Notes under the pieces: model-generated | Database searches by the model: none | Told to the model about the DNA's origin: nothing | The model's input: the letters and a program-made list of their open reading frames with translations, nothing else | Shown: in pieces, positions 18,497 through 33,920 of the stretch | How the letters are laid out: the number at the start of each line of letters is the position of its first letter | How positions within the stretch are numbered: position 1 is the first letter of the stretch | From: Candidatus Saccharimonadota bacterium | GTDB lineage: Bacteria > Patescibacteriota > Saccharimonadia > UBA4664 | Assembly: GCA_019352195.1 (NCBI GenBank) | Contig: JACAFG010000003.1 | Span: 64,956-128,955, forward strand | Direction of reading: 5' to 3' | DNA: 64,000 bases | Translations under genes and position numbers: made by a program

Positions 18497-21346
18497 TTAC
18501 TTACCGCCGCCCTGCGCCTTCCACGCGTAGGGGTTGGCGAAGCCGATAAGCCCGCCCCAGGTGCTGACGGTACTTATTTTGACTACGTCGCCGCTCTGGG
18601 GGGCGCTAATCATCTTGTCGCCGCCGAGATAGATTCCGACGTGACCGGGATTACCGGGACCACCGTCTGCGCCCGTAAAGAATACCAGGAAACCTGGCTG
18701 GGCGTGAGCTTCGTCGTAGACGCGGTAGTTCGCCATGTTGACCCACTGGTCGTTGGCGACCTGACCGATGTTGGGCATCCCGATCTGTCCGAAGACATAC
18801 CGAGTGAGGCCTGAACAGTCGAAACCGACGATATTGCAGTCGTTCTGGGCACCGTTAGGTCCACAAATGCCCGTGGACGGTCCGTTGACGCCGCCGCCGC
18901 CCCAAGAATAGTTCGTACCGAGCTCGGTTTTGGCAACAGCGATGACCTTAGCAGGATCACCGCCGGCGGCGGTGATCAGTTGACCCAGCACACCACCTTG
19001 ACCGGGGGAACCAGTGTCAGTGGTGCAGTTGGGGTCGGGTGTGGGACCGGAACCTCCACCGCCAAGCGCTTGGGCAAGATGCACTACTTGGTCGGCGTAG
19101 AGCTGGTAGACGTACTGGAACCTAGACGGGTCAGGGTTGCGAATACCCCCGCCGTAGCCGAAATCTTTTTGGCCATTGTACTGCTCGGCGGCTGCTCGCA
19201 GCGCCGCCATATTGGCGCCAACTCTCGCCCCGTCGTGGCCAATGTAGTTGGCCTCAGCGTAGGCTTCATCCGTGAAGTTGTTGATATCCGGATGACCCGG
19301 GACGGCGTAGGCCGCCCAGGCAGCTGGACCGAACTGAAACGGGCCCGTGAACCCGGGTTGTTGCGGCCACTCCCCCGTTGTCCCATAGGTGGCGAGGTGC
19401 CACTCGGGACTGGTGGTGGTCAGACTACTGAAGGCCGAGGGGTTGTGGTTGCTGTCGTAGTACTTGTACTCGAACGTGAAGCCATTTTGCTCAGTTAGAT
19501 ACATCGTCGCGACCGCTACCGGGGGAACATTTTCGGCTTTGGCAGCAGCAATCATGATCGAGCGCAGCGGCTCCGGTACCATCTTGGCATCAAGACCGCC
19601 AGGAATGGCACCCGTGGGACTGGTGAGACTACCCACCACGCCAGTGGTAGTTGTGCTTGGCGACGTGGTGGGAGCCGGCTTAGGCAGGGCTTGGATCAAG
19701 CCAAACTGCCACTTCTCGGCGAGCACGTGGCTATCGTCAACCTTGGTGGTAAGCGACTGAGCCAGTGCAAAATCAGCGGCAAACTCGTCGGACGAGCTGA
19801 CGTTGAACAGGGCTAGATCGGCCCCGGCGTTGAGCGAATCGGCGATGCGCTGACCCACCGGGCCAGTGCCAGCGCCCACCATTCCTCCGAGTTCATCGGT
19901 GATGGCGAGCCCTGAAAAACCGGTGACGTTACGCAGGTACGCGTAGGCGGCTGGACTCTCACTGGCGGGTTTACCGCTTGTGAGACCTGGAACGCTGAGA
20001 TGCCCCACCATAACCGACAAATTCTTGGTGCCGGCGAGGGTCTTAAAGGGCACTTCGTCAACGGTTGCCATTTGGGACTGGGGCGGGGTTACCGGCAAGC
20101 TGGTGTGCGAGTCGGCAGTGGTTCGCCCGTGTCCGGGAAAGTGCTTTACGACCGCCAGAACCTTCTGGCTAGCGAGCCCCGCAATGAAGGGAGCCGCCGC
20201 CCGGGAAATGACGGTCGGACTGCTGGAAATACCCCGGTCATACTGTCCGATGACCGGATTTGACGCCACCTGGAGGTCGACACTGGGCGCGAAGTCCATG
20301 TTGACGCCGGCGGCGGCCAGTCCGGCGCCCAAACGGGCACCTTCCTGACGAGCCAGATCGGCGCTCATGCTGGCGAGATCACTCGCCCGCTTGCCCGTGG
20401 CTAAGCCGAACGAGTTCACGCTCGACGTGTATTCCTGGTCGGTGGCGATAAGCAGCGGCGTCTGGGCGGCGGCCTGGAAGGACTTGATGCCGCTTTTCAG
20501 GTCGGAACTCACTCGTCCAGGGCTACCACTGCTTGGCAGAAAGAACCCGGCGACGTTGGGCTCGAGAGCCAAAATCGCCAGACCAGTAGCCGTATTGGGA
20601 ACGCCCACAAACAAATGCTGGGCGAACTGATCGGCCGTGGTTTCGGTGGAAGCGGTAACAAACGTAACTGCCAGTCCGTTGGCCCGCATGGTCGCCACCG
20701 ATTTGGCATACGCCTTTTGGATGGCGGCTGCCGTTGGGGACGCCGGAAAATCAGCAATCCCCGTGGCCGCGTTATAAGCCGTCTCTTCGGCCGCTTTGCC
20801 GGGGTTCGTTGCCCACAACGTTGGATCAACGTTGTGGGCCGCGTTCACGTAGCGAGGCAGCTCGTAGTTGGTGGCCTGAGCGGCGTTGAGAGCCTGGGCA
20901 ATGGAAATGCCCGCGTTGGCCCCCGAACCCGGGTCATAGAGCTGATCGACTCCGTACGCTCCGGCACGCACCAGCTTGGGACTACTCCCGCTGGTAAGCT
21001 CGGCGCCTACCAGCATAGCGAGGGTGATGTCGGAATTACCCGACGTATCTTCGATGATGGCCTGGACCAGCGTGTCGGTGGCCGGCGCGGTGCCAAGGGT
21101 ACCTGGCGGAATCGCGTTCGGATTGGGACACGCTAGGCCACCGATAGGATCTCCGGACGCCCATTGGAGCAGCGCCGTGGAGACCTGCATGAGGTCGGCG
21201 GGATTACCGCTGAGAGCTCCGGCCACCACTTCGGCGCCGTTGATGACTTTCTGGGCGATCGTAACTATCCCGACCGTAATGAACAGGATGAAAGCGACCA
21301 CGACGGCCGCAATCTTCATTAACAGACTACGGCGCATGCCGCTCAC
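18497..21346 (-). CDS. Multi-domain secreted peptidoglycan hydrolase: GH3 beta-N-acetylglucosaminidase (NagZ-like) + central lysozyme/transglycosylase-like region + C-terminal NlpC/P60 endopeptidase
   Basis: N-terminal TM/signal. KHFPGHG GH3 motif. C-terminal DCSGL...HVGIY...(NlpC/P60 Cys-His). The real start is probably the ATG at 21337 (SD AGGAGGTGA). Confidence 0.85.
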   Translation of the reverse strand: MSGMRRSLLMKIAAVVVAFILFITVGIVTIAQKVINGAEVVAGALSGNPADLMQVSTALLQWASGDPIGGLACPNPNAIPPGTLGTAPATDTLVQAIIEDTSGNSDITLAMLVGAELTSGSSPKLVRAGAYGVDQLYDPGSGANAGISIAQALNAAQATNYELPRYVNAAHNVDPTLWATNPGKAAEETAYNAATGIADFPASPTAAAIQKAYAKSVATMRANGLAVTFVTASTETTADQFAQHLFVGVPNTATGLAILALEPNVAGFFLPSSGSPGRVSSDLKSGIKSFQAAAQTPLLIATDQEYTSSVNSFGLATGKRASDLASMSADLARQEGARLGAGLAAAGVNMDFAPSVDLQVASNPVIGQYDRGISSSPTVISRAAAPFIAGLASQKVLAVVKHFPGHGRTTADSHTSLPVTPPQSQMATVDEVPFKTLAGTKNLSVMVGHLSVPGLTSGKPASESPAAYAYLRNVTGFSGLAITDELGGMVGAGTGPVGQRIADSLNAGADLALFNVSSSDEFAADFALAQSLTTKVDDSHVLAEKWQFGLIQALPKPAPTTSPSTTTTGVVGSLTSPTGAIPGGLDAKMVPEPLRSIMIAAAKAENVPPVAVATMYLTEQNGFTFEYKYYDSNHNPSAFSSLTTTSPEWHLATYGTTGEWPQQPGFTGPFQFGPAAWAAYAVPGHPDINNFTDEAYAEANYIGHDGARVGANMAALRAAAEQYNGQKDFGYGGGIRNPDPSRFQYVYQLYADQVVHLAQALGGGGSGPTPDPNCTTDTGSPGQGGVLGQLITAAGGDPAKVIAVAKTELGTNYSWGGGGVNGPSTGICGPNGAQNDCNIVGFDCSGLTRYVFGQIGMPNIGQVANDQWVNMANYRVYDEAHAQPGFLVFFTGADGGPGNPGHVGIYLGGDKMISAPQSGDVVKISTVSTWGGLIGFANPYAWKAQGGGK

Positions 21347-21349
21347 CTC

Positions 21350-22225
21350 CTAAGGGTGAAACGAAGTTAGAGTCCACGTACCATCGTGGAACTCCCAGTC
21401 GGACACCGGCCAACTGGCCGATGATGGGGTGTTGGTGGCGTAATTCGGCGTCATGAGCACGCGTCCTTTTGCCGACACTTCCTGAAACGACACCGGCATC
21501 TTGACGTTCATCTGATTACCGATGAGGGTGAACTGTGCCACCTTAAGATCGATGGCAGCGTTGGTCATGGACACACCTGCGGCCTTGAGCTTGTTCAGCT
21601 CGGTGCCCATATCGGTACCGAGCGGGAGTCCCTCCAAAACGCTCGGAGGAACCACCGCAGGACCTAGCTTGGCGATCCGCGCCTGACGCGATGCGACATT
21701 GTCGGAGGGCAAAACTTGGTAGTAGGCGGCCACAAAGTTCTCCAGGTTGACCTTCAGCAAACGAGTATCCGGCGTCCCGGCCGGAAAACCGGCCGGGATT
21801 GACGGAATAACGATCGCTGGCAGAGTCGGCACTGTTGTATAGGCCTCGATAGGCGGCACTGGGGCGTCGCTCGCAAGCTCCGCACCCGAACTGACTGCCG
21901 CCGAACTGGCCGGCACCGAACTCGTTTGGGACGTGGACGATGCCGGCACGGTCGAAGCTTGGCTGTGCGACTTACCGAGCAGCGTAATAACAATCACCAC
22001 GGTGAAAACCGCGAAGAGAGCTGCTACAGCGATTCTGCCATACTGCAGCTCTCGCCAGTCGAAACGGCCAGACTGGCGATTGCGCTTGGGCTGCTCGGTG
22101 CTCATACCGTCACTCCCGTAGCTTCGTACAGACCCGACCGAACATAGCGCGGGTCGGTTTGTTCGGCAAACGGAACGCGGTCGACCATCTGGTCGTTGGA
22201 CGAGTTGGCGCCGATGATATCCCAC
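21350..22225 (-). CDS. Bitopic membrane protein (VirB8-like topology: cytoplasmic N-terminus, one TM, Ser/Thr-rich linker, extracytoplasmic domain)
   Basis: The likely start is the internal ATG at 22105, overlapping the upstream stop as ATGA. The stop lies inside the SD of the hydrolase gene. Confidence 0.6.
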   Translation of the reverse strand: MGYHRRQLVQRPDGRPRSVCRTNRPALCSVGSVRSYGSDGMSTEQPKRNRQSGRFDWRELQYGRIAVAALFAVFTVVIVITLLGKSHSQASTVPASSTSQTSSVPASSAAVSSGAELASDAPVPPIEAYTTVPTLPAIVIPSIPAGFPAGTPDTRLLKVNLENFVAAYYQVLPSDNVASRQARIAKLGPAVVPPSVLEGLPLGTDMGTELNKLKAAGVSMTNAAIDLKVAQFTLIGNQMNVKMPVSFQEVSAKGRVLMTPNYATNTPSSASWPVSDWEFHDGTWTLTSFHP

Positions 22226-23586
22226 TCATCAGGCAACACTTTGTGAGTGAAAAAAATGGGATACGGTAGCGTCGACACCATCATGGCCCATTGACTTGGC
22301 CGAAGCTGATGGACAATGCGCATCTGGGCATCGTTGAAGCCCATCGCGCGGCAATCGGCAATCCCCTCGTCGTCGTTCTCTTCGAGGTGGCCGACGATTC
22401 GGGTGGAAATGGTCTGCCGCAAAATCTCGGCGTTGTTGTGATGATCAGTGCCATAGCCGCCGACACCGGTGATCTGTTGCGTATACTGCGCGATCTCGAT
22501 ATCCCAGGTGGGGAAACGGCGTGTAATAGCCGCTGATCGAGCTCGCATCGACGCGTAATCGGGGCTGGACATGGCCTGGTGGCCTTCGTCGTTGGCATTG
22601 ATATGCGGAATGAGGTGGTCAAGTTGGCGCAGGTGCGCCACCGACAACCACTGCCATTGCAGTGTTTCGAGCAGACCCTGGCCCTTGGCTGGCATACCCA
22701 GCCAATACCAGTTGGCAAAGCGGGCCCCGAGGAAATCGGCCATGCCGCCCATGTGACTGAACGTACGGCCAAAATCTTTGTCGAGGATGCGGTAAAAATC
22801 GGCCGCAAGTAAATGAGCCCGCGAAACAATTTGTCCAACCTCGTCATCGAGCCTGTCATCAGCACGAAACACGCGCTGTTTGATCTCGTAGTACAGGCCG
22901 GGATTGTGCTTGAACCGCTCGTGATAGATCTTGCGCTGCTCCTGGCGACCTTTGAGCTTGTTCGCTTCGACGTCGGCGCGAGAGACGGTGGACAGCGCGT
23001 CGGCAAAATATCTCAGCGACGATACTTTCGGTTTCGCCCACAGCTCATCGACCCCGACACTGATCGCGGCCAAGTCGTATGAGTCATACTCGCGACCCGA
23101 CGAACGTTGGCCCATGATCACAGCCGTCTCGATGTGATCGAAACGGTCGAGACCAATGTCCATAGCGAAGGGGTTAACCAACGGTTCGGTGGCCAGATTG
23201 AACGTTTTGCCACCGCACTTACGGGTTAGAGCGGCGTCTTCCGACTCCCCGTTTTCCGCCTTGCGGCTGTGATCGCGAATGCGCATCATCGCCACTGTAC
23301 CGTCGAGGTTCTTGCCGGCTTGGAGGCCGAGTGCCCGAGCGATAGTGGTCTTCTTCAGCGTCGATTTGCGCGCCTTGATCTGGGCGGTGATGAGCCACGT
23401 ATTGGCAAATGTCATGTCTTGGTCTTGCTGCAGCCACGGATGAACCGCAAACCGCCTGCGATTGTAAAACTCCGTCCCAAGGTATACACCCCGGGTCGAA
23501 AACGGCATGGGAGCCGTGTAGGGCCAGCTGAGAGCAAAACTCTCAAGCGTGCCCGGCAGCGTACGCATTTGGGACATGGAGTTCAC
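22102..23586 (-). CDS. Hypothetical ~490-aa soluble protein with a possible degenerate ParA-like P-loop (IKARKSTLKKTT)
   Basis: The likely start is the ATG at 23577 after SD AGAGGTG. No canonical Walker A. Confidence 0.6.
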   Translation of the reverse strand: MNSMSQMRTLPGTLESFALSWPYTAPMPFSTRGVYLGTEFYNRRRFAVHPWLQQDQDMTFANTWLITAQIKARKSTLKKTTIARALGLQAGKNLDGTVAMMRIRDHSRKAENGESEDAALTRKCGGKTFNLATEPLVNPFAMDIGLDRFDHIETAVIMGQRSSGREYDSYDLAAISVGVDELWAKPKVSSLRYFADALSTVSRADVEANKLKGRQEQRKIYHERFKHNPGLYYEIKQRVFRADDRLDDEVGQIVSRAHLLAADFYRILDKDFGRTFSHMGGMADFLGARFANWYWLGMPAKGQGLLETLQWQWLSVAHLRQLDHLIPHINANDEGHQAMSSPDYASMRARSAAITRRFPTWDIEIAQYTQQITGVGGYGTDHHNNAEILRQTISTRIVGHLEENDDEGIADCRAMGFNDAQMRIVHQLRPSQWAMMVSTLPYPIFFTHKVLPDEWDIIGANSSNDQMVDRVPFAEQTDPRYVRSGLYEATGVTV

Positions 23587-23755
23587 CTCTTTCGAAAATT
23601 GGACAAAAACGGATATATTGGACTTTCAATTTCAAGGTTCGAGACGCTGCTAGGCACCTCGGATATACGTTTTAAGCTAAAACATATATCTGAAGCGCTT
23701 AGCTGTCTCGGGTGGAAAAGCTCCACCCGAGACAGCGGCACGGACATGCAACTGC

Positions 23756-25597
23756 TTACATCATGGGAAGACCCAGATTGGCGCACTGGGCGGCGCGGAA
23801 CTGGCGTGCAGCGCCGGTGACACGCTTGGCCACGTGCTTCTTGGACTTGATGATATTCACGACCGTGCGGATGTCGGCCTCCAGTTGATCGTGCGAGGTC
23901 GCAAGAATCGAGAAGATCCGCGTGTAGTCGGCGCCGTAACCACTCTCGTGCAGCTCGACGCGGCGAGCTTCACCACGCTTGCGCCGATCCTTGGCCGCCA
24001 AGGTGTTGAGCCTCAACCCAGTTCCTTCGGAGAAAGCGTCCTTAAAGCCCGACGCCAGTGTGAGCCACAGAACCTGCAGCTGACTGTTGGTGCTCTCCGA
24101 GAGGGTGGCTTGCGAAAAGTGGATCTTCCGCGCGCCCAGATTGATTTGCCGGTAGTAGTCGGGCAGAACCAACTTGTCCTGCCGTTCGGTGGTATTGGCC
24201 GTGATGACCAAGGTAGCGATGAACGTGCCATCGACGATGCAAAAATCGCGTCCCTGGTAAATGTACTTTCTCGGCCAATGCGGTGACAGCGACTCTGCGA
24301 CAAGATCCTCGAAGTCGCTTGGGGTACCAACAAACTTGGCCCCCAGGCGTTTGCGCGTGTCTTCCTCGGTCTCGTTGACCGAGTCGAGGTGCTCCATACG
24401 CCACGCGTTGTACTCATCGGAATCCGTGATGTGGAGCCCGTTGTAGACGAAATCGCGAGTCTCGGCCAAATCGAGGACATGCGGATCCTCGATCGCGTTC
24501 TGCTCGAGGCCGCCGGTCACCGTATCGATGATCGTCTTGATGTCGGAGGCGCTGAAATCATCCAGCGCCAAACTCCTGCGCTTGGCAGCCCGACTCCATT
24601 CACCCGTACGGCGAATGGACCAAATAGTGACTTGGTCGATATCGAGCTCATTGAGCGCGGAGAACGCCACCGACTGCTGGTATAACCGCCCCGACAAGGC
24701 GAGTCCGTCACACTCCTGATCGGTAAATCCCTCCGCCAAGATCTCATAGGCCTCGTTGGAGAGATTGCCCACCGCGGGATTGATGAGCGCGATGGCCATC
24801 GGATGGTAGTCTTCCTGGAAATCACGTTGGAGCACGAACCGGTCGACCGGTCGAGACCGGTCAAGCGAGGTTACGCGCACCGAGAACTTGTGCTGACCTA
24901 GGGAGACTTCACGGACGACGTCGACGAAGCCGCGATTGCTGTCGGCGGCACTCAGCAGGTCCCAGTTCTTGGTACTGCCGGCGCCGGTCACCACGAAGTA
25001 GTCGGCTTTGGTTACGGGATCGTAAATGCAGGTGTAGACCACGCCACCAGACGCGACGTCATTGGGGTCACCAATGCGGTAAATCTTCAGCCGGATCGGC
25101 CGCCGATTGGGGAAGGGCCGGCGATGACGCTTGGGCTTTACTTCCTCGTTGTTACTGGGCGGTCGGCCCTTCTTTGCGTTAGACCGGGCCTTAGCTTTCG
25201 CCTTGGCTTCAGCCTTAGCTTGGGCTCTCGCTCTCGACTCGGAGTTGCGGTCAGTTTTGGCCGGAATTGGTATAACCCCATCGAAATCGGAAGACATCCA
25301 GAGGACGCCACCGTTCACGACCCCGTGCCACTGACTGACAAACCACTGGCCGAGAACTATGTACACCCGGCCAAAGGTCATCCGCAGAAAAAACATGATC
25401 CAGATTGCAATGCCGATCAACCAGCTATACTGTCCTGGAATGCGCAACTGGATGTAAAAGTCGAGTAGAACGAAGAAGACAAGCGCAATGTGATCACGCC
25501 GGTCGTCGAAACGGAGAAAATTCATCACCGTCCGAGCCGGTATTTTCACATACAATTCGCGAATGTCCCGGCCATCAATTTCTGTTGGACTTGTCAT
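23756..25597 (-). CDS. Large membrane protein (2 N-terminal TM helices, basic KAEAKAKAKA linker, ~450-aa domain)
   Basis: Strong SD AAGGAGG. No recognised catalytic motif. Confidence 0.65.
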   Translation of the reverse strand: MTSPTEIDGRDIRELYVKIPARTVMNFLRFDDRRDHIALVFFVLLDFYIQLRIPGQYSWLIGIAIWIMFFLRMTFGRVYIVLGQWFVSQWHGVVNGGVLWMSSDFDGVIPIPAKTDRNSESRARAQAKAEAKAKAKARSNAKKGRPPSNNEEVKPKRHRRPFPNRRPIRLKIYRIGDPNDVASGGVVYTCIYDPVTKADYFVVTGAGSTKNWDLLSAADSNRGFVDVVREVSLGQHKFSVRVTSLDRSRPVDRFVLQRDFQEDYHPMAIALINPAVGNLSNEAYEILAEGFTDQECDGLALSGRLYQQSVAFSALNELDIDQVTIWSIRRTGEWSRAAKRRSLALDDFSASDIKTIIDTVTGGLEQNAIEDPHVLDLAETRDFVYNGLHITDSDEYNAWRMEHLDSVNETEEDTRKRLGAKFVGTPSDFEDLVAESLSPHWPRKYIYQGRDFCIVDGTFIATLVITANTTERQDKLVLPDYYRQINLGARKIHFSQATLSESTNSQLQVLWLTLASGFKDAFSEGTGLRLNTLAAKDRRKRGEARRVELHESGYGADYTRIFSILATSHDQLEADIRTVVNIIKSKKHVAKRVTGAARQFRAAQCANLGLPMM

Positions 25598-25608
25598 GTC
25601 TCCCCTCC

Positions 25609-26682
25609 TTAGGGCTCGACGGTATCGGCTTCGGCCTTATTACGGTGGTGGTGGTGGACCACCATGAGAGCAGCAGCAGCGGTCCCCGAGAGGGGATTCG
25701 TTGATGATGCCAAGTAGACCGCCCCCTTGAGGGCGCCATAGGCCAATGCGCCGTGGACGACTTTCTTCGGAAGCGAGGTCGGCTTGTACTGGGGTTCAGC
25801 CGGCGGCATCATGTTTTGCGCGTAGTTGTTGTTCACCGTGTCCGCGCTCACTGCTGGCTGGCCGCGCCAATCGAACCTGGTTTGGCCGCTCATGCGCTGC
25901 CGGACCTGCTCAGTCTTGGTCGCCACATAGCTATGCGTCGACTTGAGCATGTAAAACAGGCCGTACCTCGCCACTGCCAGACCGGCGATGAGCGAGACGA
26001 TGGCACCGAACGAAGTGACCGTGGCGGTCTTGCCGCTCACGTACTCCGACAGCACCAGGCACCCCATAACAAAGGGGGCGCCAGCAAACAGCGACACAAA
26101 GCCGATGCTCACGAGCCAGTCGAACGCCGCCTTCATCTTCTGCGACACCACGCTCAGGACAAGCATGGGCAGAAACAGAATCTCGAAGAGGATGATGGCG
26201 ATGCCAAAGATGTAGAACATCACGATGAGGACAATGATGTACCACGACGCCGGCACGAGTCCGACCAGTCCGGCCAAAACACCCGGAATGCTGGGAATGG
26301 TGATGATGCCATTCAGGGGATTCGTCCCGCCCAGATTGAAGAAGTAGTCAGTAATTTTCTGACTGAGGCTTTGCAGCGAGTCACAGAAGCGGAAGAAGAC
26401 TCCCCCACCAATGACGGTCAGAAAAAAGAAGACAACCAACGACTTCACCGCGTACATGAGCCGGCGCTGCATAACAGCACCGATCATGAGCAATACCAAG
26501 GTGATACTCACGGAAAGCATATTGGCAAAGCTCCACGAAGCACCATAGAGCACGTACTGCCAGTCGCCTGGCGGAACACGCGGCGGCTTGATGAGAACCG
26601 CCTTGAGTGCGAGGTTGAGCGTTCGTACAAACGCGCCGACCATGGTCAGAATACCGGAGAGGATAGTACTGATTATGTCCAT
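25609..26682 (-). CDS. Polytopic membrane protein (at least 6 TM; VirB6/TrbL-like topology), His-rich C-terminus
   Basis: SD AGGAGGAGGTGA. Multiple long hydrophobic helices. Confidence 0.65.
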   Translation of the reverse strand: MDIISTILSGILTMVGAFVRTLNLALKAVLIKPPRVPPGDWQYVLYGASWSFANMLSVSITLVLLMIGAVMQRRLMYAVKSLVVFFFLTVIGGGVFFRFCDSLQSLSQKITDYFFNLGGTNPLNGIITIPSIPGVLAGLVGLVPASWYIIVLIVMFYIFGIAIILFEILFLPMLVLSVVSQKMKAAFDWLVSIGFVSLFAGAPFVMGCLVLSEYVSGKTATVTSFGAIVSLIAGLAVARYGLFYMLKSTHSYVATKTEQVRQRMSGQTRFDWRGQPAVSADTVNNNYAQNMMPPAEPQYKPTSLPKKVVHGALAYGALKGAVYLASSTNPLSGTAAAALMVVHHHHRNKAEADTVEP

Positions 26683-26758
26683 CGTTCACCTCCTCCTAGA
26701 GGACGAATGGCCTGGAGCGCGATCCGCACTCCAGGCCATATTCGACGGGACCGGAGTG

Positions 26759-27217
26759 CTAGTAGCAGCCGGGGACCTCTTTGTTGACGGCCGCCGTGAA
26801 GATCTTCAGGACGATCGCCAGAATCACGAGACCGATGGTCGCGAAACGAAGAGCGATCAACAGCGGTCGCAGCGTGACCAGGGCCAACAGTGCGCCACAG
26901 ACGAGTGCCATCAGGGCCACTGAGTAGAAGAGGATCGTCACAACGCCGTACGTCTCGCTGACCACTCCGATGAGTGGCAGCTTCATGATGTTGGCGGCGT
27001 CGCAGCTGCCGCTGTTGATGTAGGACCCCTGGTTGGGACCTCCGCCGCCCGTGGGTGCGGCCGGGACGGCCATGGCCATGGACGCGGAGGTCAACAGCAT
27101 GGTGAACATGCCGCCCAGAACGACGACGCCGCGGGCTGCGGCGGCGCGGAGCCGCACGTACGTTTCGATCATGGCACTACCTTCTTTCTGGTGGGGGTGG
27201 GTAAGACTGCAGCTCAC
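26759..27217 (-). CDS. Pilin-like small protein (signal peptide + two hydrophobic helices; VirB2/TrbC-like architecture)
   Basis: The likely start is MIETYV at 27172 (SD AGAAGGTAG). A signal ends ...SASMAMA. Cys residues sit near the mature N-terminus (SGSCD) and at the C-terminus (PGCY). Confidence 0.55.
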   Translation of the reverse strand: MSCSLTHPHQKEGSAMIETYVRLRAAAARGVVVLGGMFTMLLTSASMAMAVPAAPTGGGGPNQGSYINSGSCDAANIMKLPLIGVVSETYGVVTILFYSVALMALVCGALLALVTLRPLLIALRFATIGLVILAIVLKIFTAAVNKEVPGCY

Positions 27218-28859
27218 CGTAGAGGTTCACAGCTTGGAGCTGAGGGTGGTACCGCGTACCTGTTTCGGCCACCTGATCGATGTGAGAGATGTCGACTCCA
27301 CGCGTATCAGCGGAAATGCGCAGAGCCTGTTCGGCAACCTTCATGTAGGCCAAGAAGGTCTGCATGTCGATCGCGTTGGGGTCACACACGGTTCCCCGCT
27401 TGCTGGCGATGTACGGATCGTACGGGACGGTCATGCACTTGCCGGCGAACTTGTCGGTTGGTACCGCGTGGGCCGATTGGCGCGCAGTTCGGGTAAGTTG
27501 ATCAAAATCGATCTCCTCGCCCACACGAATGGCGTTCACGACCACGATTGATTTCTTGACCTTCTTAGGGGTCTGAACGAATCCTGGCTGGCCAGCAATC
27601 TCTGCCGGAGGCTCGGTGTCCGTTCGATACGCGTCCATCGTGCTCGTGAGCATGAGGCGCGTGATCTCGACGTCGGCCTTGCAGTTGAAGATGATCACCG
27701 TGGCTTTCCGGGCACCGGCCAGAACAATGCTGTCCTCGTTGACGTCGTCGTTGCCCGTATCGAGCCCCATCGTATGGCAGTTGGGGTAGAGGGCATCGAA
27801 CATCCGGTTGAATGTCTGCACCGTCAGCTCGCTGTGGTCGTTGATGACGCTGTTAGGGTTCCCCGAAATGACGCCGAGCCCGATCCGCGGAGTTGTGTTG
27901 ATGAAACTCCACAGCTTTTTGTTTGTCGGATTCGGATCGTCCTCGAGCAACTTCACCAACTTGCCGATGGTGAAGAGCACTTCGGAGTAGATATCGAAGC
28001 CGGCATCGTGTCCGGCCGTGCTCGTGGCGGAGTTCTTGGTGGTCGGAAGCAGGAGCGTGTCCTTGCCGCCAAACAACCTGATGATCGCCAGCACGTACAA
28101 CAACAGGGTGGTCTTGGCGGCCGTGCCCTTGATGTTGGCACTGAGAATGACCGGGTCGATCCCTGGAGTCTGGACGAGCGCGTAGATTCTGGCGCCCGTC
28201 ATGAAGACGTCGTTGTAGAAATCGGCGACTTTCTGGCGAGCTTCCCTCTGACGCGACTCTTCTGCTTGCTCGAGCAGCCGGCGCTGATGCTCCTCGGCGC
28301 TGCGGGCATGCCGAAGCGCCATGAGTTTGTCGATCTGTTCTTTGCTGAGCTTCAGGCTCTTGGGAAACTCTCTCGTTGCGCGGTCGGGGTGCAGCAAGAC
28401 GAACCTGCGTAGGGCGAACCAGTTGCCGAGCCCGCCGTCCTCCGCGATTCGGCGCTCGTCCGGATCCAGGGGATCTGGCTTGATGACCGGGGGTGGAGGC
28501 GAGGTGGGCACGGCCATGCCGTCCTTGATGGTGGGGATGGGCCCAGTCAGGGCATCACTCACCGTTCGGAGGTCGAGGGCCGGGTGCGGCTCAGAAGACT
28601 TGTCCAGAGACACGACCCTCTGGCCGACGGACGCCGCCTCTCCGGTAATGGCGGACACTGCCCGGAGTGTGGGCGATGCCGGTCGCACCACGGGTGCCGG
28701 GCCTCGACCCGTTAGCGCAATACTGGTATCTGGACGTGCGGCAGAGTCAGGACGGCGGCGAGGTAGCCGGTCGTCACGGGCTGGTTCGGACATGGCAAAA
28801 TCCCTTCGGAACGGTAAAAACCTTGGAAAATGGACGGAAGTTAAAATGCTGTAGAACAT
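27177..28859 (-). CDS. Protein with C-terminal ParA/MinD/CpaE-like domain bearing a degenerate deviant Walker A (KGTAAKTT) and an N-terminal Pro-rich/coiled region
   Basis: IKGTAAKTTLLLYVLAIIRLFGGKDTLLLPTTKNSATS parallels ParA [38 protein letters not shown]. The likely start is MSEPARDD at 28793 (SD GAAGGG). Confidence 0.6.
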   Translation of the reverse strand: MFYSILTSVHFPRFLPFRRDFAMSEPARDDRLPRRRPDSAARPDTSIALTGRGPAPVVRPASPTLRAVSAITGEAASVGQRVVSLDKSSEPHPALDLRTVSDALTGPIPTIKDGMAVPTSPPPPVIKPDPLDPDERRIAEDGGLGNWFALRRFVLLHPDRATREFPKSLKLSKEQIDKLMALRHARSAEEHQRRLLEQAEESRQREARQKVADFYNDVFMTGARIYALVQTPGIDPVILSANIKGTAAKTTLLLYVLAIIRLFGGKDTLLLPTTKNSATSTAGHDAGFDIYSEVLFTIGKLVKLLEDDPNPTNKKLWSFINTTPRIGLGVISGNPNSVINDHSELTVQTFNRMFDALYPNCHTMGLDTGNDDVNEDSIVLAGARKATVIIFNCKADVEITRLMLTSTMDAYRTDTEPPAEIAGQPGFVQTPKKVKKSIVVVNAIRVGEEIDFDQLTRTARQSAHAVPTDKFAGKCMTVPYDPYIASKRGTVCDPNAIDMQTFLAYMKVAEQALRISADTRGVDISHIDQVAETGTRYHPQLQAVNLYGELQSYPPPPERR

Positions 28860-28922
28860 GTTGTAAGCAGTTTTTCAAGGAGCTGGTCATTTAACCCATC
28901 TGGTGCTCAACTTCCGGATGGA

Positions 28923-28943
28923 GGTTGACCAATGGGGTTGACC
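28923..28943. promoter_or_regulatory. Tandem GGTTGACC direct repeats (13-bp period) in the divergent promoter region
   Basis: GGTTGACC at 28923-28930 and 28936-28943, within the 350-bp AT-richer gap between the operon and the divergent 29208 gene. Confidence 0.3.
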
Positions 28944-29207
28944 CGGATATTGCTACCCGGTTCCGGAAGCTGATTTTAGGCTTATATTGAGCTTAAAATC
29001 GTACTTGCAGAATCGATCAACAATAATCATTACGCTTGGCTCAAAATCCTAGCGAGACCGTACCACTTTTTATATTTGATGACAAGCACAACCGTCTAGC
29101 ATCTATTAATAGTTGCCATTTGAACATTAATATCGTATAAACCACCCATAGATGACCCAGTGAAATTGGTTCACCCACCTTCATAATCCAAGTCCTAGGG
29201 AGACCTC

Positions 29208-30596
29208 ATGACCGGTCCTACGCCGCCGGCACCATCGACACCACCCGAACCACCGAAACCACCGCGCCACCGACCGCAGTCGACTTTTCAAAGAATGTTG
29301 GAGCCCGAAACCGCCGAGCTGACCTTCGAAGATTACGTCGAAGGGAGCGAACGCAGAGGCCTGAACGCACTGTTGTGCAGCGGCGCCGTCGTGATGCTCG
29401 GCTTTCTTGTCTTCGTGCTCACCCAGCTCGCGTGGCTAAAAGCCACCATCCTGTCGGTTTGGTGGGTGAATGTGCTCATTTGGGCCGTTCTCAGCCTGAT
29501 TGCCGTGTGGATCATTCTGCGGGCGCGTGCTGAGATGGAGTGGATCAACCAAGATGTTGATGCTTTTGGCCGCTACGACGAGGCACAGCCCCCCGCCGAG
29601 CGGCTGCAGGTGAAGTACGAGTGGGTTCCACGCAAGTACACCATCCGCATCTTACTGGCCAAAGTCGCCGATCAAAAAGACCGCTTCGAGGCGATCACCA
29701 AACTGCCCGTAGACAACCTCATACTCGCTACCCGGCGCAAGAAGATTGTGATGTACGCACCCATCGGGGGCATGATTGTGTTTGGGGGCCTCGTCTTGTG
29801 GACTACCAGTTGGGCGTCGGTGTATCTCCAAAACGCGGTTTACAACGTTATGGTGACGCCTCCCGGCGACAATACGTCCGCCAACAGCTTCATCGATAGT
29901 TTGGTAGCCAAGGCCCAAAGCGCGGCCGTCAGTTTCAGCTTCGACTGGCACTGGCTCGTTGGGATGGCAATATTGCTAACCGCCGGTGTCTTCTTGTTGC
30001 GTTTGGCCGTGAGGCACGTTCGGCGTCGGGGCGATGCCAGACGAGCAGCTCGGAGCGAGAACGCGGTGAGGGAACCACATCTGGGCTACTGGACAATCAG
30101 CCTCCTCATTGCTTTGGCAGCGAGCGCAATTGTCGTGAATTTGTGGCACGCCATCGACGTGACTCAGGTTTACCGCAATACCTTCGAAGGCCAATCGGCG
30201 CCCCTCCACCATGTCTTTTCCGGCTTGCCCAGCTGGTTTGGTATCGGTGTCTGGGTATTGGTGGCGCTTTACGGTGTGGGCGCGGTGCTAAGGTGGATGA
30301 GCTTCGTCGTAGCGCTCATGACCACGAGCATTCAGCTGGTGCCCTTGTGGCCTGGCTGGTTGTTCTGGGTGGGGCGTAACCCGGCCATTTTGTACGTCGA
30401 CCGGATCGACCTCAACAACTACAAACAGTCGGTTTGGGGGCGCATCTTCAGATATTGCACTCTCATCATCGACTCACCGGCCCAAAAAGACCGGCAGTTC
30501 AACCACATTTTGGGCATGCCCAAACCCGACGTCATATTGGCCACTATCAACTCCATCGTGAAGGCCAGGCTCCTGATTCAACCGCCCTCAATCTGA
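29208..30596 (+). CDS. Polytopic membrane protein (462 aa) with a Pro-rich N-terminus
   Basis: SD AGGGAG. Many hydrophobic helices. Divergent from the envelope operon. Confidence 0.6.
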   Translation: MTGPTPPAPSTPPEPPKPPRHRPQSTFQRMLEPETAELTFEDYVEGSERRGLNALLCSGAVVMLGFLVFVLTQLAWLKATILSVWWVNVLIWAVLSLIAVWIILRARAEMEWINQDVDAFGRYDEAQPPAERLQVKYEWVPRKYTIRILLAKVADQKDRFEAITKLPVDNLILATRRKKIVMYAPIGGMIVFGGLVLWTTSWASVYLQNAVYNVMVTPPGDNTSANSFIDSLVAKAQSAAVSFSFDWHWLVGMAILLTAGVFLLRLAVRHVRRRGDARRAARSENAVREPHLGYWTISLLIALAASAIVVNLWHAIDVTQVYRNTFEGQSAPLHHVFSGLPSWFGIGVWVLVALYGVGAVLRWMSFVVALMTTSIQLVPLWPGWLFWVGRNPAILYVDRIDLNNYKQSVWGRIFRYCTLIIDSPAQKDRQFNHILGMPKPDVILATINSIVKARLLIQPPSI

Positions 30597-30600
30597 CCCA

Positions 30601-30640
30601 AAGGCCCGGCAGCGCGAAAGCGTTGCCGGGCCTTGTCATT
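30601..30640. terminator. Hairpin aaggcccggc...gccgggcctt between convergent genes
   Basis: 10-bp perfect stem (30601-30610 / 30625-30634) with a structured loop. Weak T-tract. Confidence 0.45.
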
Positions 30641-30655
30641 GGTGATCGCTATTAT

Positions 30656-31444
30656 TTAGGCGGCTTTACGCACGAGCAAAAACATACTGGGGCCAAAATT
30701 GGCGCTGGCGAGCGTGGTTTGCATGACGTTTTCGAGTCCCAGCATGAGCTGACGTGGCAAGACTTTTTTAAGTCCTGGGCTACGTAAGTTTGAGACCGAT
30801 AATTTGCGCTCCACGGTTAAACCGGCGGCAGCCAGCTGGCGTTCCACCGTCGCAGGATGGTGGTTAACAAAGGCAATGCCCCCGTCGGCTGTGCTGGCGG
30901 CGGAAGCCACGTTGATGGGCGTCGCGGGGATTTTTTCGCCTTTGAGCGTGGCCTTGATGCGGTTACGCGCATGGGTGGAGTTAGCGACTTCGAGAATGAG
31001 ATAGCCGCCCGGCGCTAGCACCCGGCTGAGCTCCGCAAACTCTGGCTCTGGCTTCGGTAGGTGGTGCATGACGCGGATCATGGTAATAAGATCAAGCTCG
31101 CCGTCGTTAAACTTGAGTTCGTCAGCCTGCATTTGGACGCGGTCGATCTCGGGGTGATCTTTGAGGAATTCAGCCCCAATATCAAGCTGCTGCTGGCTTG
31201 GTTCGGCGAGGGTAACGCGGTCGGCATATTGTTCCAAAAAGACGCATAAGCGCCCGTAACCACCGCCAATATCAGCGGCACGCTTAAAGTGTTTGCCGTC
31301 AAGCAGACGCGTAATGGCCATTCGTTCGGCCTCGTTTTCGTAGTCGCGGCCGTCCCAATAATGAAGATAATTATGGCTGGGATCATCGTACTGATTGGCT
31401 GGTTTGTGGGAAGTTGGTTCTGACATATTTGAGTATTTTAACAT
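30656..31444 (-). CDS. Class I SAM-dependent methyltransferase
   Basis: Motif I DIGGGYGRL, acidic motif II, 262 aa. Confidence 0.8.
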   Translation of the reverse strand: MLKYSNMSEPTSHKPANQYDDPSHNYLHYWDGRDYENEAERMAITRLLDGKHFKRAADIGGGYGRLCVFLEQYADRVTLAEPSQQQLDIGAEFLKDHPEIDRVQMQADELKFNDGELDLITMIRVMHHLPKPEPEFAELSRVLAPGGYLILEVANSTHARNRIKATLKGEKIPATPINVASAASTADGGIAFVNHHPATVERQLAAAGLTVERKLSVSNLRSPGLKKVLPRQLMLGLENVMQTTLASANFGPSMFLLVRKAA

Positions 31445-31550
31445 CCTGCTTGAGTTTTTCTAAATCTAAATTCGATCAAATTGACTTACTTTAGTAGTTA
31501 TGCTATAGCCGTAAAGTTAATTGGTAAAGCTCAGCCTAGCGAGGCAAGCT

Positions 31551-31820
31551 ATGACATACCCAATATGGCCCGAACGGACTATCCCGTTGACCATTAGCAA
31601 AGCCCGAACGTATTCGGATTTGCTGTCAGATCAACTCATCGATAGCCTCCGGTCTGAAGCGGAGAAGTGGGGCGCTCTGCTCGGTCGGCCCACTTTCATC
31701 GATGCAGACGGCGCGACGTTCAGCAGATCGCCCTCCTCCGGCTTGGCCTTGATGGCGTTGGTGACGGGCAGCTCCTGCTGCAAATCACGCACGAACAAAC
31801 GGACAGCGGCAGCCTGCTGA
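31551..31820 (+). CDS. Hypothetical small protein (89 aa) in a GC-rich patch; uncertain
   Basis: SD GAGG lies 6 nt upstream of the ATG. Overlapping ORFs are open on both strands (high GC). Confidence 0.3.
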   Translation: MTYPIWPERTIPLTISKARTYSDLLSDQLIDSLRSEAEKWGALLGRPTFIDADGATFSRSPSSGLALMALVTGSSCCKSRTNKRTAAAC

Positions 31821-32051
31821 GGTTCGCCATCATCAGCTACCCCCTGGACAGCGGAACCAAGCCCATCAGTTTTTCCGTGCTCTACCACCCGAGCGGTATC
31901 GTTGACCTGCTCGCGGTGATCGCCCCGAAGCTCCGGAGCATTCCCGGGCTGGTCCAGATCGCTACCTAGCGCCATACTCAGCTTCCGTCCTCCATCTTGC
32001 CCCGAAAGGAGCGCCAATTTTCGGCGAGCCCTTCGGGGCTTCGTCTTGTTA

Positions 32052-32086
32052 AAACACAAAAACAGCGCTATTGGCGCTGTTTTTGA
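32052..32086. terminator. Bidirectional rho-independent terminator
   Basis: AAAAACAGCGC-tattg-GCGCTGTTTTT. Perfect 8-bp stem with flanking A-tract and T-tract. Confidence 0.65.
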
Positions 32087-32157
32087 AGACTTAATTGCTG
32101 GTGCCCTTAAACGACATCCCTTCGAACAGCTAGTTGATTGGATCGATGTGATCGGAC

Positions 32158-32541
32158 TTAGCTTTGAATCGAATGGGAGTTTAGCCAGTTCGAAATTTCT
32201 TTAACATCGATATGTTTGGTAGCGATTTCGACTGCATAATTTTCAATCTCACCTGCTGTTGCCCGAAATTCAAGCTCGTTAAGTCGAAGTAAGGTTAAAC
32301 CTGCAAGTATGGCCGTACGCTTATTACCATCGACAAATGGATGATCGGCGATAATCCCCCGAATAATGGCAGCAGATTTATCAGTAATATTAGCGTATAG
32401 CTCCTCACCGAAGACGTTTTGGGTTTGCGTAGCAACCGCCGACTCCAGCCTACCAAGGTCGCGCAAACCCGAAGCGCCGCCAGTTTCGGCTAGCACAAGT
32501 GCGTGGATCTCAAGCAAATGCTCGAGCGAAAGCACAATCAT
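32158..32541 (-). CDS. doc: Doc (Fic-family) toxin
   Basis: Fic motif HPFVDGNKRTA. 127 aa. Confidence 0.9.
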   Translation of the reverse strand: MIVLSLEHLLEIHALVLAETGGASGLRDLGRLESAVATQTQNVFGEELYANITDKSAAIIRGIIADHPFVDGNKRTAILAGLTLLRLNELEFRATAGEIENYAVEIATKHIDVKEISNWLNSHSIQS

Positions 32542-32759
32542 CGCTGAGAGAGATTATCAAAATCCTGCTTGTAGTCGTTCAAGATGCCACGAGCAGTAGC
32601 AATGACTTTCTGGTCATCACTGTTAGGAGAGTGGACAGGGCGGACGATTACTTCAACTTCGTCACCAATCGCAATATTCTGACGCTTTAGGTCTTTGGCA
32701 GGAATAGTGACGCCCCCGCTTGAACCGATTTTGATAATTTTTTGGATGCTTTGAATCAT
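32538..32759 (-). CDS. phd: Phd/AbrB-type antitoxin (SpoVT/AbrB swapped-hairpin N-terminus)
   Basis: 73 aa. MIQSIQKIIKIGSSGGVTIPAKDLKRQNI is an AbrB/MazE-like fold signature. Overlaps doc by 4 nt. Confidence 0.8.
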   Translation of the reverse strand: MIQSIQKIIKIGSSGGVTIPAKDLKRQNIAIGDEVEVIVRPVHSPNSDDQKVIATARGILNDYKQDFDNLSQR

Positions 32760-32764
32760 AGAAA

Positions 32765-32794
32765 TATTATAACGTTGTTATAATACTATGTCTA
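32765..32794 (-). promoter_or_regulatory. phd-doc promoter/operator: inverted repeat TATTATAAC-GTT-GTTATAATA overlapping -10 TATAAT; -35 TAGACA
   Basis: Inverted repeat at 32765-32785. The -10 sits 7 nt from the ATG, which implies a leaderless or very short-leader mRNA. Confidence 0.45.
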
Positions 32795-32968
32795 GACCTA
32801 TTTAGTGTGATCTGGATGAGACACATTCAATCAAAGACTATATAAGCCCTCCGTGGAGGTCTTATATTAGAATAATTGTTATTCAATTGTCTTAAATGAT
32901 GCTCTTGAACGACACCTGTTCAAACCCTTAGTTGCGTGGCTCGACCGAATAAGGATCTACTGGGTGAA

Positions 32969-33307
32969 TTAGCCGCTTACTAAACTTTCAATTAGTCCTT
33001 GCGTTTTAGATATGACATTATCGCTGGCCCTCTCCTCATACGCTGGTTTTCGAGCTCGCCAATCAACATTTTTGATCTGATCGGCAAGAACAGCTCCCTC
33101 CATTTTTTTGGACTTGACGCGGACTTCGAATGGATAGCCTTTGATCTTAGACGTTATCGGGCAGGCCAACATCATACCTGAGCGTTCGTTGTAATTTCGC
33201 GACGAAATCACCAGTGCAGGACGCGTGCCAGCCTGTTCGTGGCCAATCTGGGGGCTAAAATCAAACCACACAATGTCCCCGCGGGCGGGGACGTAGTCCG
33301 CTACCAT
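32969..33307 (-). CDS. mazF: MazF/PemK-family endoribonuclease toxin
   Basis: 112 aa. Start MVADYVPARGDIVWFDF...PALVIS matches the PemK/MazF N-terminal signature. Confidence 0.85.
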   Translation of the reverse strand: MVADYVPARGDIVWFDFSPQIGHEQAGTRPALVISSRNYNERSGMMLACPITSKIKGYPFEVRVKSKKMEGAVLADQIKNVDWRARKPAYEERASDNVISKTQGLIESLVSG

Positions 33308-33549
33308 ATTTCATTCCCGACAGGAGCGCCCCAGTCCATTTCGCCGTGAATGTTTTCAGGGGTGATGCCCTTCACTAAGTCGTCCAATGATAACCTGGGC
33401 TGCTCGTCGCGTTTGATGGTAGCCGTCGTGCCGTCGCTGGTAATTTCGACCTGACAATCACTGGATAGGCCGAGATCCCGCGCTACACGTGAGGGAATAC
33501 GGATAGCCAGACTATTGCCCCACATTTTGACTTGGGTGGTAGTTTTCAT
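33301..33549 (-). CDS. mazE: MazE/PemI-type antitoxin
   Basis: 82 aa. WGNSLAIRIPSRVARDLGL is a SpoVT/AbrB MazE hallmark. Overlaps mazF by 7 nt. Confidence 0.8.
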   Translation of the reverse strand: MKTTTQVKMWGNSLAIRIPSRVARDLGLSSDCQVEITSDGTTATIKRDEQPRLSLDDLVKGITPENIHGEMDWGAPVGNEIW

Positions 33550-33573
33550 TGTTCGGCCCCATTAATGCTTAAA

Positions 33574-33595
33574 TTGTATATCTATGTATATACAA
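33574..33595. promoter_or_regulatory. Operator-like palindrome TTGTATAT-ctatgt-ATATACAA upstream of mazE
   Basis: 8-bp perfect arms, about 25 nt upstream of the mazE start. Confidence 0.4.
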
Positions 33596-33644
33596 TGTCA
33601 ATGCAAAAATGTGGAAAACGTAGTTGATTGGCAGAATATCGAAT

Positions 33645-33680
33645 ATCAAAATAAGCGCTTGGTTAAGCGCTTATTTTGAT
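33645..33680. terminator. Perfect 16-bp-stem hairpin ATCAAAATAAGCGCTT-ggtt-AAGCGCTTATTTTGAT
   Basis: Read directly. A/T-rich ends make it a plausible bidirectional terminator/insulator. Confidence 0.5.
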
Positions 33681-33868: not shown

Positions 33869-33920
33869 TTGCAGCTCCTCTAGAACGTACAAGTCTAATG
33901 AGGGGAAGAGCCTTGTTAAC

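Follow-up and report, generated by a model that had tools for sequence, protein, structure and literature searches.

A predicted ParA/MinD-fold protein with a degenerate ATP site heads a conserved secretion-like gene cassette in Saccharimonadia

Introduction

ParA-like proteins with atypical ATP sites are already known to be attached to envelope machines. TadZ/CpaE proteins are ParA/MinD-like, have an atypical ATPase site, are dedicated to a secretion or pilus operon and are thought to be localisation or docking factors and not motors; TadZ carries an N-terminal receiver-like domain and is encoded together with CpaF/TadA and TadB/C. MinD, FlhG (YlxH) and FleN also act on envelope machines or division sites, not on DNA. 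VirC1 of Agrobacterium, another ParA/MinD-like protein, serves a type IV secretion system (T4SS) by recruiting the transfer intermediate to it; it needs a canonical deviant Walker A motif for its function, and its partners are VirC2, the relaxosome and the coupling protein. Here we describe a gene for a ParA/MinD-like protein with a degenerate ATP site, located at 27177..28859 on the minus strand of a 64,000-nucleotide stretch of DNA from a Candidatus Saccharimonadota bacterium (assembly GCA_019352195.1, contig JACAFG010000003.1, positions 64,956 to 128,955). This whole stretch is called the window below, and all coordinates refer to it. The gene is the first of a cassette of seven genes that resembles a T4SS.

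Two described systems are of particular relevance to this cassette. In Streptomyces, cmdABCDEF is a chromosomal, non-conjugative relative of the actinobacterial modules that contain SCO6880-type proteins, and its VirB4-like protein CmdB is located in the membrane (PMC2782261). In Patescibacteria the T4SS is MPF_FATA-like and chromosomal (SEML1_0006-0019 in S. epibionticum), has no relaxase, and has hydrolases beside virB4 and a TrsD (VirB4-N-like) partner (PMC12102498, PMC10633639). Its components are a VirB4 of full length, TrsD, VirB6, a protein of the PrgI family and VirB2-like pilins in arrays; a ParA-like component is not described for it (PMC12102498, PMC10633639).

Results

A ParA/MinD fold is predicted for the protein

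The open reading frame (ORF) codes for 560 amino acids (aa) when read from its first ATG, and we describe its product as a ParA/MinD-fold protein on the basis of the ORF listing, the predicted structure and searches with fold and profile. In the NCBI annotation the same ORF, on a contig of 160,867 bp, starts at an internal GTG and gives 493 aa, under the name 'hypothetical protein HJC99_03260 [Candidatus Saccharibacteria bacterium]'. Which of the two starts is the true one is uncertain.

A first-pass annotation, made from the letters of the window, had noted a stretch of 38 residues, IKGTAAKTTLLLYVLAIIRLFGGKDTLLLPTTKNSATS (residues 243-280, nt 28020-28133), that aligns with ParA position by position, and had predicted a ParA/MinD/CpaE-like domain from it. 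The window protein itself has no match in Pfam or NCBIfam even at E<=1, and likewise none in PHROGs. A single-sequence phmmer search against the sequences of the PDB gave no ParA, merely a spurious low-complexity match, and a word-index search for homologs of the protein found one relative only. The silence of the three libraries and of the single-sequence search is what would be expected if the likeness to ParA were a chance match across 38 residues. A two-sequence profile (A2), made from the C-terminal part of the window protein and one close relative, matches eight PDB sequences at E<=10. All eight are of the ParA/Soj type and all fall, ungapped, on residues 243-280, with Soj of H. pylori at the top (E=0.0029), and both the motif KGTAAKTT and the gap-free alignment are therefore present as described.

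An exhaustive profile search over 1.84 billion cluster representatives recovered 125 family representatives at E<=1e-3, 44 of these below 1e-30. Using an alignment of family representatives, we built an AlphaFold2 model of residues 150-560, with a mean predicted local distance difference test score (pLDDT) of 89.5 and a predicted template modelling score (pTM) of 0.85. When this model is compared with the PDB by Foldseek, the best 50 matches belong exclusively to the MinD/ParA family (FleN, MinD, FlhG, Soj, ParA2, P1 ParA, McdA, MipZ and BcsQ). The best E-value is 1.9e-7 (FleN, 5j1j) and the target-normalised template modelling (TM) score reaches 0.72 (MinD, 3q9l), over about 290 aligned columns with about 14% identity; FlhG (4rz3) is also matched. 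Further, the profile of the 123-member family matches ParA (8ray) at E=1.7e-8 and FleN at E=3.8e-8, in alignments that span from the P-loop (Walker A) to the Walker B strand. When relatives are scanned singly against Pfam (E<=0.01), AAA_31 is found in 33/111 and CbiA in 21/111.

Model, fold search and family profile agree on a ParA/MinD-like fold, as the first-pass annotation had proposed. ParA-fold matches are thus obtained, and the domain assignment stands: judged by the model, the window protein is a genuine ParA/MinD-fold (SIMIBI-class) protein, and the resemblance is not due to chance. The probability of a chance match is negligible, as it is refuted already by the fold search and the family profile search, and the Pfam matches in the relatives speak against it as well. 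At the sequence level the homology to ParA is established for the family and not by a curated threshold on the window protein itself.

The ParA/MinD-like domain covers about residues 236-530 (27270..28154, minus strand, as for all parts of the protein), as defined by the secondary structure of the model, with pLDDT >90 in this part; it is here that the roughly 290 columns align with FleN, MinD and Soj. It is preceded by a long, charged alpha-helix of 58 residues (residues 173-230, 28170..28343; helix H24-81 of the model). The region N-terminal of this helix is rich in proline and arginine, with a proline fraction of 0.11, and residues 150-172, directly ahead of the helix, are modelled with low confidence. 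N-terminal regions are variable across the family (median proline fraction 0.09). In 18/123 representatives, among them P0006, P0010, P0057, P0062, P0065 and P0082, they contain a strongly hydrophobic segment that resembles a transmembrane helix; in the same check no such segment is seen in the window protein.

The ATP site is degenerate

The deviant Walker A motif of the protein reads K244-G245-T246-A247-A248-K249-T250-T251 (28107..28130), where the canonical motif is KGGxGKT[ST]. Set against K-G-G-x-G-K-T-T, the second glycine of KGG is replaced by threonine and the glycine preceding the Walker lysine by alanine, just as the first-pass annotation had claimed, and the canonical pattern KGGxGK[ST] is not matched. 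The signature lysine K244, the Walker lysine K249 and the Mg-binding threonine T250 are all kept. At the place of Walker B and switch II the protein has L-D367-T-G-N370-D (27747..27764), aligned to IIID of ParA (8ray) and VVVD of FleN; the Walker B aspartate D367 terminates a hydrophobic strand of the model (E214-218).

Switch I is different. The equivalent segment, TLLLPTTKNSATST (residues 268-281, 28017..28058), was located by alignments to 6iub and 8jmj and by the family consensus LPxTxNxxTST, and it contains neither aspartate nor glutamate where MinD and Soj carry D38 and D40. Without gaps, the alignment pairs L271 and T273 with the two aspartates of switch I in Soj of H. pylori, which correspond to D38 and D40 when numbered as in B. 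subtilis. The wild-type Soj chain 6iub reads DFD at switch I and the D41A mutant 8jmj reads DFA, the second aspartate being the mutated one. An inspection of Walker B and the switches thus gives a divided answer, with D367 kept and the switch-I aspartates gone.

When the second aspartate is mutated (D40 in E. coli MinD and B. subtilis Soj, D44 in T. thermophilus Soj), ATP is no longer hydrolysed and the protein stays locked as an ATP-bound dimer. Given this behaviour, and because switch I of the window protein is devoid of acidic residues, canonical ATP hydrolysis by this protein is very unlikely, as far as can be judged from its residues. The pocket may be deficient in nucleotide binding, as the first-pass annotation had predicted; the retained K244, K249, threonine and D367 suggest that it is still under constraint.

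P-loop degeneracy is a trait of the family

Among the 123 representatives the canonical KGGxGK[ST] is found in 11 only. The glycine preceding the Walker lysine is absent in 72/123, a deletion of one residue in the loop (K-SGGKT, K-SGSKT) is seen in 37/123, and the Walker lysine is gone in 18/123 (KGAAATTT) and present in 105/123. Other positions of the pocket are better kept: the signature lysine in 105/123, threonine or serine at position 250 in 123/123 (100%), D367 in 122/122, N370 in 118/123 and K433 in 112/123. The exact form KGTAAKTT is unique to the window protein, and the glycine-to-threonine change at the same place recurs on other branches. Comparison of these sequences indicates that degeneracy of the P-loop is a trait of the whole ParA-like family and not of one genome, which bears out the family-wide degeneracy of the deviant Walker A.

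In a rough neighbour-joining tree, calculated with the P-loop columns left out, a basal group keeps the canonical P-loop and the switch-I aspartate (D-x-N-x-N..GT). A second clade lacks the Walker lysine and has D-F-N-P-A-S-G-T at switch I. In a large clade, which includes the window protein, switch I is replaced by a conserved L-P-x-T-x-N-x-x-T-S-T; glycine-to-serine and deletion variants of the P-loop are nested within this clade, and the switch-I aspartate is missing throughout it. Parsimony on six crude P-loop states requires about 30 changes, indicating that the P-loop has changed readily in evolution, unlike the remainder of the pocket, which is fixed. Since canonical members share the cassette and branch basally, as does P0099 with its canonical P-loop and switch-I aspartate, the degenerate forms appear to be derived within the system.

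Such a conserved pocket could also belong to a working ATP-dependent switch. Here the odd P-loop (KGTAAKTT, or KGGASKTT in relatives) would bind ATP, the protein would dimerise through its signature lysine, and slow or partner-stimulated hydrolysis would regulate the assembly or number of machines, as FlhG/FleN and MinD do. The near constancy of the two lysines, of the threonine or serine and of D367 is unlike a freely drifting dead site, and the best structural matches are the FleN-AMPPNP and MinD-ATP dimers. However, neither the window protein nor its clade has an acidic residue in switch I, and D40-type mutants of MinD and Soj do not hydrolyse ATP. Moreover, the forms with a replaced glycine, a shortened loop or no Walker lysine all still occur in the same operon, and no activator of the MinE or ParB type is evident in the cassette. 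We therefore regard a working switch as unlikely, though it deserves to be taken seriously.

The gene is the first of a conserved seven-gene cassette

In Saccharimonadia a T4SS-like operon of seven genes is conserved, and the ParA-like gene is its dedicated first member. The genes occupy the minus strand between 28859 and 18497 and are tightly packed, with gaps or overlaps of 4 nt; all seven ORFs are intact. Second comes a small membrane protein in a VirB3/PrgI-like position (26759..27217, an ORF of 152 aa), with a likely ATG at 27172, 4 nt past the stop of the ParA-like gene. It is followed by a polytopic membrane protein of 357 aa in a VirB6/TrbL-like position (25609..26682), a probable SCO6880-type (VirB4 N-terminal-like/TrsD-like) subunit of 613 aa (23756..25597) and a protein of 494 aa with a VirB4-like ATPase domain (22102..23586). 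The last two genes code for a membrane-anchored protein (21350..22225, an ORF of 291 aa with a likely ATG at 22105, in a 4-nt overlap with the upstream stop) and a cell-wall (peptidoglycan) hydrolase of 949 aa (18497..21346). Only the hydrolase is recognised by the curated libraries; for the ParA-like protein and five of its six partners, including the small and the polytopic membrane protein, Pfam, NCBIfam and PHROGs give nothing useful.

A search for related loci with alignment A6 gave two genome loci and three short metagenome loci. The full gene order, in which the sixth protein has about 200-290 aa, is shared by L001 (Patescibacteria UBA6017), L002 (Saccharimonadales), L009, L010 (a contig of 397 kb) and L015, and part of the same order is seen on the shorter contigs L003, L004, L008 and L016. 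The order does not depend on the state of the ATP site: L009 carries a ParA variant without the Walker lysine and L015 one with a canonical P-loop. A blastp comparison of matching positions confirms homology for the ParA-like, polytopic, 613-aa, 494-aa and ~200-290-aa proteins. Homologs of the polytopic protein occupy the same position in L001, L002, L003, L005, L008 and L010, those of the membrane-anchored protein are found in L002, L010 and L011, and the 613-aa protein is assigned from its syntenic homologs and a weak family match of the one in L002. The small membrane protein has no match by blastp; across loci the gene that follows the ParA-like gene always codes for 85-138 aa (77 aa on one contig that cuts off the gene). 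Flanking genes vary among loci (metG, a P-type ATPase, an EF-G-like gene, a Pif1 helicase), and therefore the cassette is the conserved unit.

At the orthologous positions the hydrolase is an M23, an NlpC/P60+M23 or an NlpC/P60/CHAP enzyme, so the lytic module appears to be swapped between lineages. The hydrolase of the window, on the minus strand like the rest of the cassette, is an unusual fusion of a glycoside hydrolase family 3 domain (Glyco_hydro_3, beta-N-acetylhexosaminidase-like) with a C-terminal NlpC/P60 endopeptidase.

Divergent from the cassette, on the plus strand, lies a gene for a multi-pass membrane protein of 462 aa with a weak bPH_2 match (29208..30596). Weak homologs are found in the same divergent position in L010 (3512-4828, minus strand) and L004 (1083-2063, minus strand), and this gene may be an eighth, accessory member of the cassette.

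The neighbouring ATPase is VirB4-like

The first-pass annotation had also seen a weaker echo of the motif, IKARKSTLKKTT, near the N-terminus of the protein encoded at 22102..23586, and had considered that two pseudo-ParA paralogs may exist. The string is present at residues 70-81 of this protein of 494 aa and is indeed part of a degenerate motif, though of another kind. The AlphaFold2 model of the protein (pLDDT 79.5) has as its best Foldseek match VirB4 of Thermoanaerobacter, in its C-terminal ATPase domain (4ag6_B, E=1.4e-11), followed by DndH, HerA, Cag-beta, TrwK/VirB4 and TrwB. Profile A7 gave only a self match in a word-index search for relatives; a search seeded with the ortholog in L002 gave 24 homologs, and the family thus contains 25 sequences. 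Its motifs are a Walker A of the form GxKxxGK[ST] and an invariant DE Walker B. As IKARKSTLKKTT belongs to the Walker A of a VirB4-like (HerA-FtsK-class) ATPase domain, a second pseudo-ParA paralog is not what the window contains, and we rejected this candidate.

In the window the Walker A of this protein reads A68-Q-I-K-A-R73-K74-S-T (23359..23385). The pattern GxxxxGK[ST] is kept in 22/23 homologs that cover Walker A, where the remaining one has alanine at the first glycine; one further homolog is truncated at its N-terminus. The 494-aa protein of the window is the sole one of the 25 without glycine before the Walker lysine, having arginine instead, and its DE Walker B is kept. With AQIKARKST next to KGTAAKTT, both NTPase-like proteins of the cassette are P-loop-degenerate in the window genome. 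This double decay may stem from a change in the function of the entire machine or from relaxed selection in the lineage.

Relaxed selection leads to another explanation, namely that the cassette of the window genome is a decaying relic and its ParA-like protein without current function. Both P-loops, KGTAAKTT among 123 representatives and the arginine before lysine among 25, are unique; both proteins are on long branches, with about 26-37% identity to their nearest relatives, and the cassette lies in a stretch of high GC (57-61%) that adjoins two tRNA genes. Against this, all seven ORFs are intact and tightly coupled, without frameshifts or stops, and the family alignments yield confident AlphaFold2 models for both proteins. 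The other conserved positions are also kept, namely D367, N370 and K433 and, in the VirB4-like protein, the DE Walker B, and decay of the ParA-like P-loop is a family trait. A relic is in our opinion quite improbable.

The cassette is a T4SS-like module of an actinobacterial type

Neither the 494-aa nor the 613-aa family profile gives a meaningful match among PDB sequences. Orthologs in L002 are more informative: that of the 494-aa protein matches AAA_10 (E=0.005) and VirB4_plasma (E=0.0011) weakly, and that of the 613-aa protein matches NF042935 (SCO6880_fam) at E=1.3e-4 with 21 bits, which is below the 60-bit cut-off; the 613-aa protein of the window itself has no match to this model. When the ATPase was compared with 72,556 plasmids by tblastn, 26 records were found, all from Actinobacteria (Rhodococcus, Nocardia, Streptomyces, Arthrobacter and others).

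On Rhodococcus pREC1 and on an Arthrobacter alpinus plasmid the gene order is a small protein, a polytopic or hypothetical protein, a SCO6880 family protein and the ATPase gene, which is annotated as 'ATP-binding protein' in pREC1 and as 'hypothetical protein' in A. alpinus. The SCO6880 family gene is the immediate upstream neighbour of the ATPase gene, the position that the 613-aa gene has in the cassette. The ATPase gene of pREC1 is followed by genes for a small protein and for an M23 peptidase; the hydrolase of A. alpinus is of the CHAP type and is encoded upstream of the module. In both plasmids a TraM-recognition coupling protein is found further on. From the ortholog matches and this plasmid gene order it follows that the cassette is a T4SS-like module of the actinobacterial type with a split VirB4. 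It is one without a coupling protein or relaxase: neither a VirD4/TraM-recognition protein nor a relaxase is found within the cassette or directly beside it in the window, L001, L002 and L010. What had been called an envelope operon thus does contain the genes of an envelope machine, although of this secretion-like type and not of a pilus or flagellum.

The SCO6880-type modules (pREC1, Arthrobacter plasmids, SLP2 and cmdABCDEF of Streptomyces) share with the cassette a gene order with a stand-alone VirB4-like protein and an M23/CHAP hydrolase. However, identity is only 21-29%, and the cassette has no coupling protein, relaxase or DUF4913. The leading ParA-like gene is an addition of the cassette and is not at that position in the actinobacterial loci inspected. 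By tblastn the ParA-like domain has no match among the plasmids, and upstream of the SCO6880-type modules of pREC1 and A. alpinus no ParA-like gene is annotated; the four upstream hypothetical proteins have no Pfam match.

This bears on the possibility that the protein is a leftover partition ParA, acting in DNA segregation, from the plasmid or integrative and conjugative element that brought the T4SS genes. ParA genes are common on such elements, and the cassette does resemble the T4SS modules of actinobacterial conjugative plasmids. Yet genes for ParB, a centromere-binding partner, a relaxase or a coupling protein are missing from the cassette, and no ParA is annotated at the corresponding position of the actinobacterial plasmid loci inspected. 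Across differing chromosomal neighbourhoods the gene is the fixed first one and is translationally coupled to that of a membrane protein. Finally, some family members are membrane-anchored, and dynamic partition requires ATP hydrolysis. We consider a partition function very improbable.

A side observation concerns a distant member of the ParA-like family, P0114, encoded at 10001-11266 of L014 (a Logan contig from SRR22405825). It has a canonical KGGVGKTT and stands directly after a conjugative T4SS of the Firmicutes type, whose preceding genes code for TcpC, TcpE, an 831-aa VirB4/AAA_10 protein, a TrbL-like protein and a CHAP hydrolase. This arrangement may mean that ParA-like proteins were associated with T4SS genes before the Saccharibacterial cassette arose.

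Genomic surroundings

Upstream of the region are rpoB/rpoC, clpP and tig, so the region is chromosomal. Just downstream of the cassette, on the minus strand, are genes for tRNA-Asp and tRNA-Arg (17292-17366 and 17457-17528). In a GC profile across 18000-32000, the cassette has 57-61% GC, compared with 44-55% elsewhere in the window. This suggests that the cassette is an island acquired beside tRNA genes, consistent with an actinobacterial source.

The stretch from about 32000 to 46730 has low GC (44-50%) and the appearance of an integrated mobile element. It contains a rolling-circle Rep-like gene (Phage_CRI, 38598-39791) and encodes a tyrosine integrase (40156-41058), an NgoMIV restriction enzyme together with a C5 methylase (42644-44555) and, abutting a tRNA-Leu gene (46645-46728), a serine recombinase (45107-46696). 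Another of its genes codes for a DUF5677-domain protein of 485 aa (35683-37140, minus strand).

Discussion

The protein has its closest structural relatives in MinD, FlhG and FleN, with which it shares the fold and the order of motifs: a P-loop with a signature lysine, switch I and Walker B. It differs from them by an identity of only about 14%, by KGTAAKTT in the place of KGGxGKT, by the lack of switch-I aspartates and by an additional N-terminal part, consisting of the proline-rich region (of low model confidence where modelled) and the 58-residue helix. No flagellar or min genes are found near the ParA-like gene.

An analogy to TadZ/CpaE and FlhG had been drawn by the first-pass annotation, and it is reasonable as far as a degenerate ParA-like protein in the operon of an envelope machine is concerned. 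It does not extend to membership: because there is no receiver-like N-terminal domain (in a model that starts at residue 150) and no tad genes adjoin, we rejected the placement of the protein in TadZ/CpaE. Its N-terminus is instead proline-rich and variable, followed, in the model, by one long helix, and its partners are VirB4-like and SCO6880-like. VirC1 is likewise a ParA-like protein tied to a T4SS, but its partners VirC2, relaxosome and coupling protein are not found in the Saccharibacterial cassette.

The cassette also differs from the T4SS described in Patescibacteria. The VirB4 of the latter is recognisable by DUF87/TraC models, while the cassette has no pilin array and six of its seven proteins have no Pfam or NCBIfam match. 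A term search of the annotation tables of the S. epibionticum T4SS found neither the ParA-like gene of the cassette nor a second VirB4-like protein, only a chromosomal Soj. With components that differ to this extent, the cassette is a system separate from the published one.

We propose that the protein is a hydrolysis-incompetent adaptor with a ParA fold, encoded first in a T4SS-like operon and serving as an assembly or docking factor; we find this rather likely. Its ancestor would have been an ordinary ATPase of the ParA/MinD type that was recruited to a T4SS-like machine. In most descendants, the window protein included, hydrolysis would have been lost, so that they could no longer act as a positioning switch driven by ATP hydrolysis. 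The window protein would now act statically, as an adaptor that is probably dimeric and may still have nucleotide bound; docked to the membrane complex from the cytoplasmic side, it would help to assemble, place or load the secretion machine. A comparable role is played in other envelope machines by TadZ, FlhG/FleN, BcsQ and VirC1, although the window protein belongs to none of these families. We infer the loss of hydrolysis, the dimerisation and the scaffold or docking role from the predicted fold, the states of the motifs, their pattern across the family, the transmembrane-like segments of some members, and the place of the gene in an operon with a VirB4-like neighbour.

Several points weigh against the adaptor. 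The retained lysines, threonine and aspartate could support ATP binding and even slow hydrolysis by means of another residue. The Walker A of the VirB4-like ATPase is spoiled too (G73R), and judging from these two motifs inactivity or decay may affect the entire cassette in this genome. The tree that orders the P-loop states is a rough one. Finally, the T4SS of S. epibionticum has no such ParA-like gene, so the transposon sequencing (Tn-seq) data for it cannot be transferred to the cassette.

A more far-reaching version of the adaptor proposal is that the lineage repeatedly gave up its ATPase site, through loss of glycines, a shorter loop and loss of the Walker lysine and of the switch-I aspartate, and became an obligatory structural subunit of a T4SS-like machine with a split VirB4, of the actinobacterial type and derived from the host. 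We put this forward tentatively, as an idea more doubtful than probable. Within it, one possibility is that the ParA-like protein replaces the missing coupling protein as a cytoplasmic docking platform.

The literature searched and the curated libraries contain neither this ParA-like family, nor its link to a split-VirB4 cassette, nor the breadth of its P-loop decay. The analysis defines a conserved seven-gene T4SS-like cassette of which all proteins except the hydrolase escape Pfam and NCBIfam, and gives an annotation handle for about 125 clusters of 'hypothetical proteins'. Its first gene provides a natural series, from canonical to fully degenerate ParA/MinD ATP sites within one fixed genomic context, that is useful for asking what a ParA fold does after hydrolysis has been lost.

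As the means by which Saccharibacteria exploit the Actinobacteria to which they are attached, their envelope machines are the foremost candidates. The ATPase of the cassette looks actinobacterial in origin, to judge from its homologs. If the more far-reaching version of the proposal is true, the cassette would be a second, undescribed secretion apparatus of Saccharibacteria, distinct from the pilin-bearing T4SS that is known to be essential in S. epibionticum.

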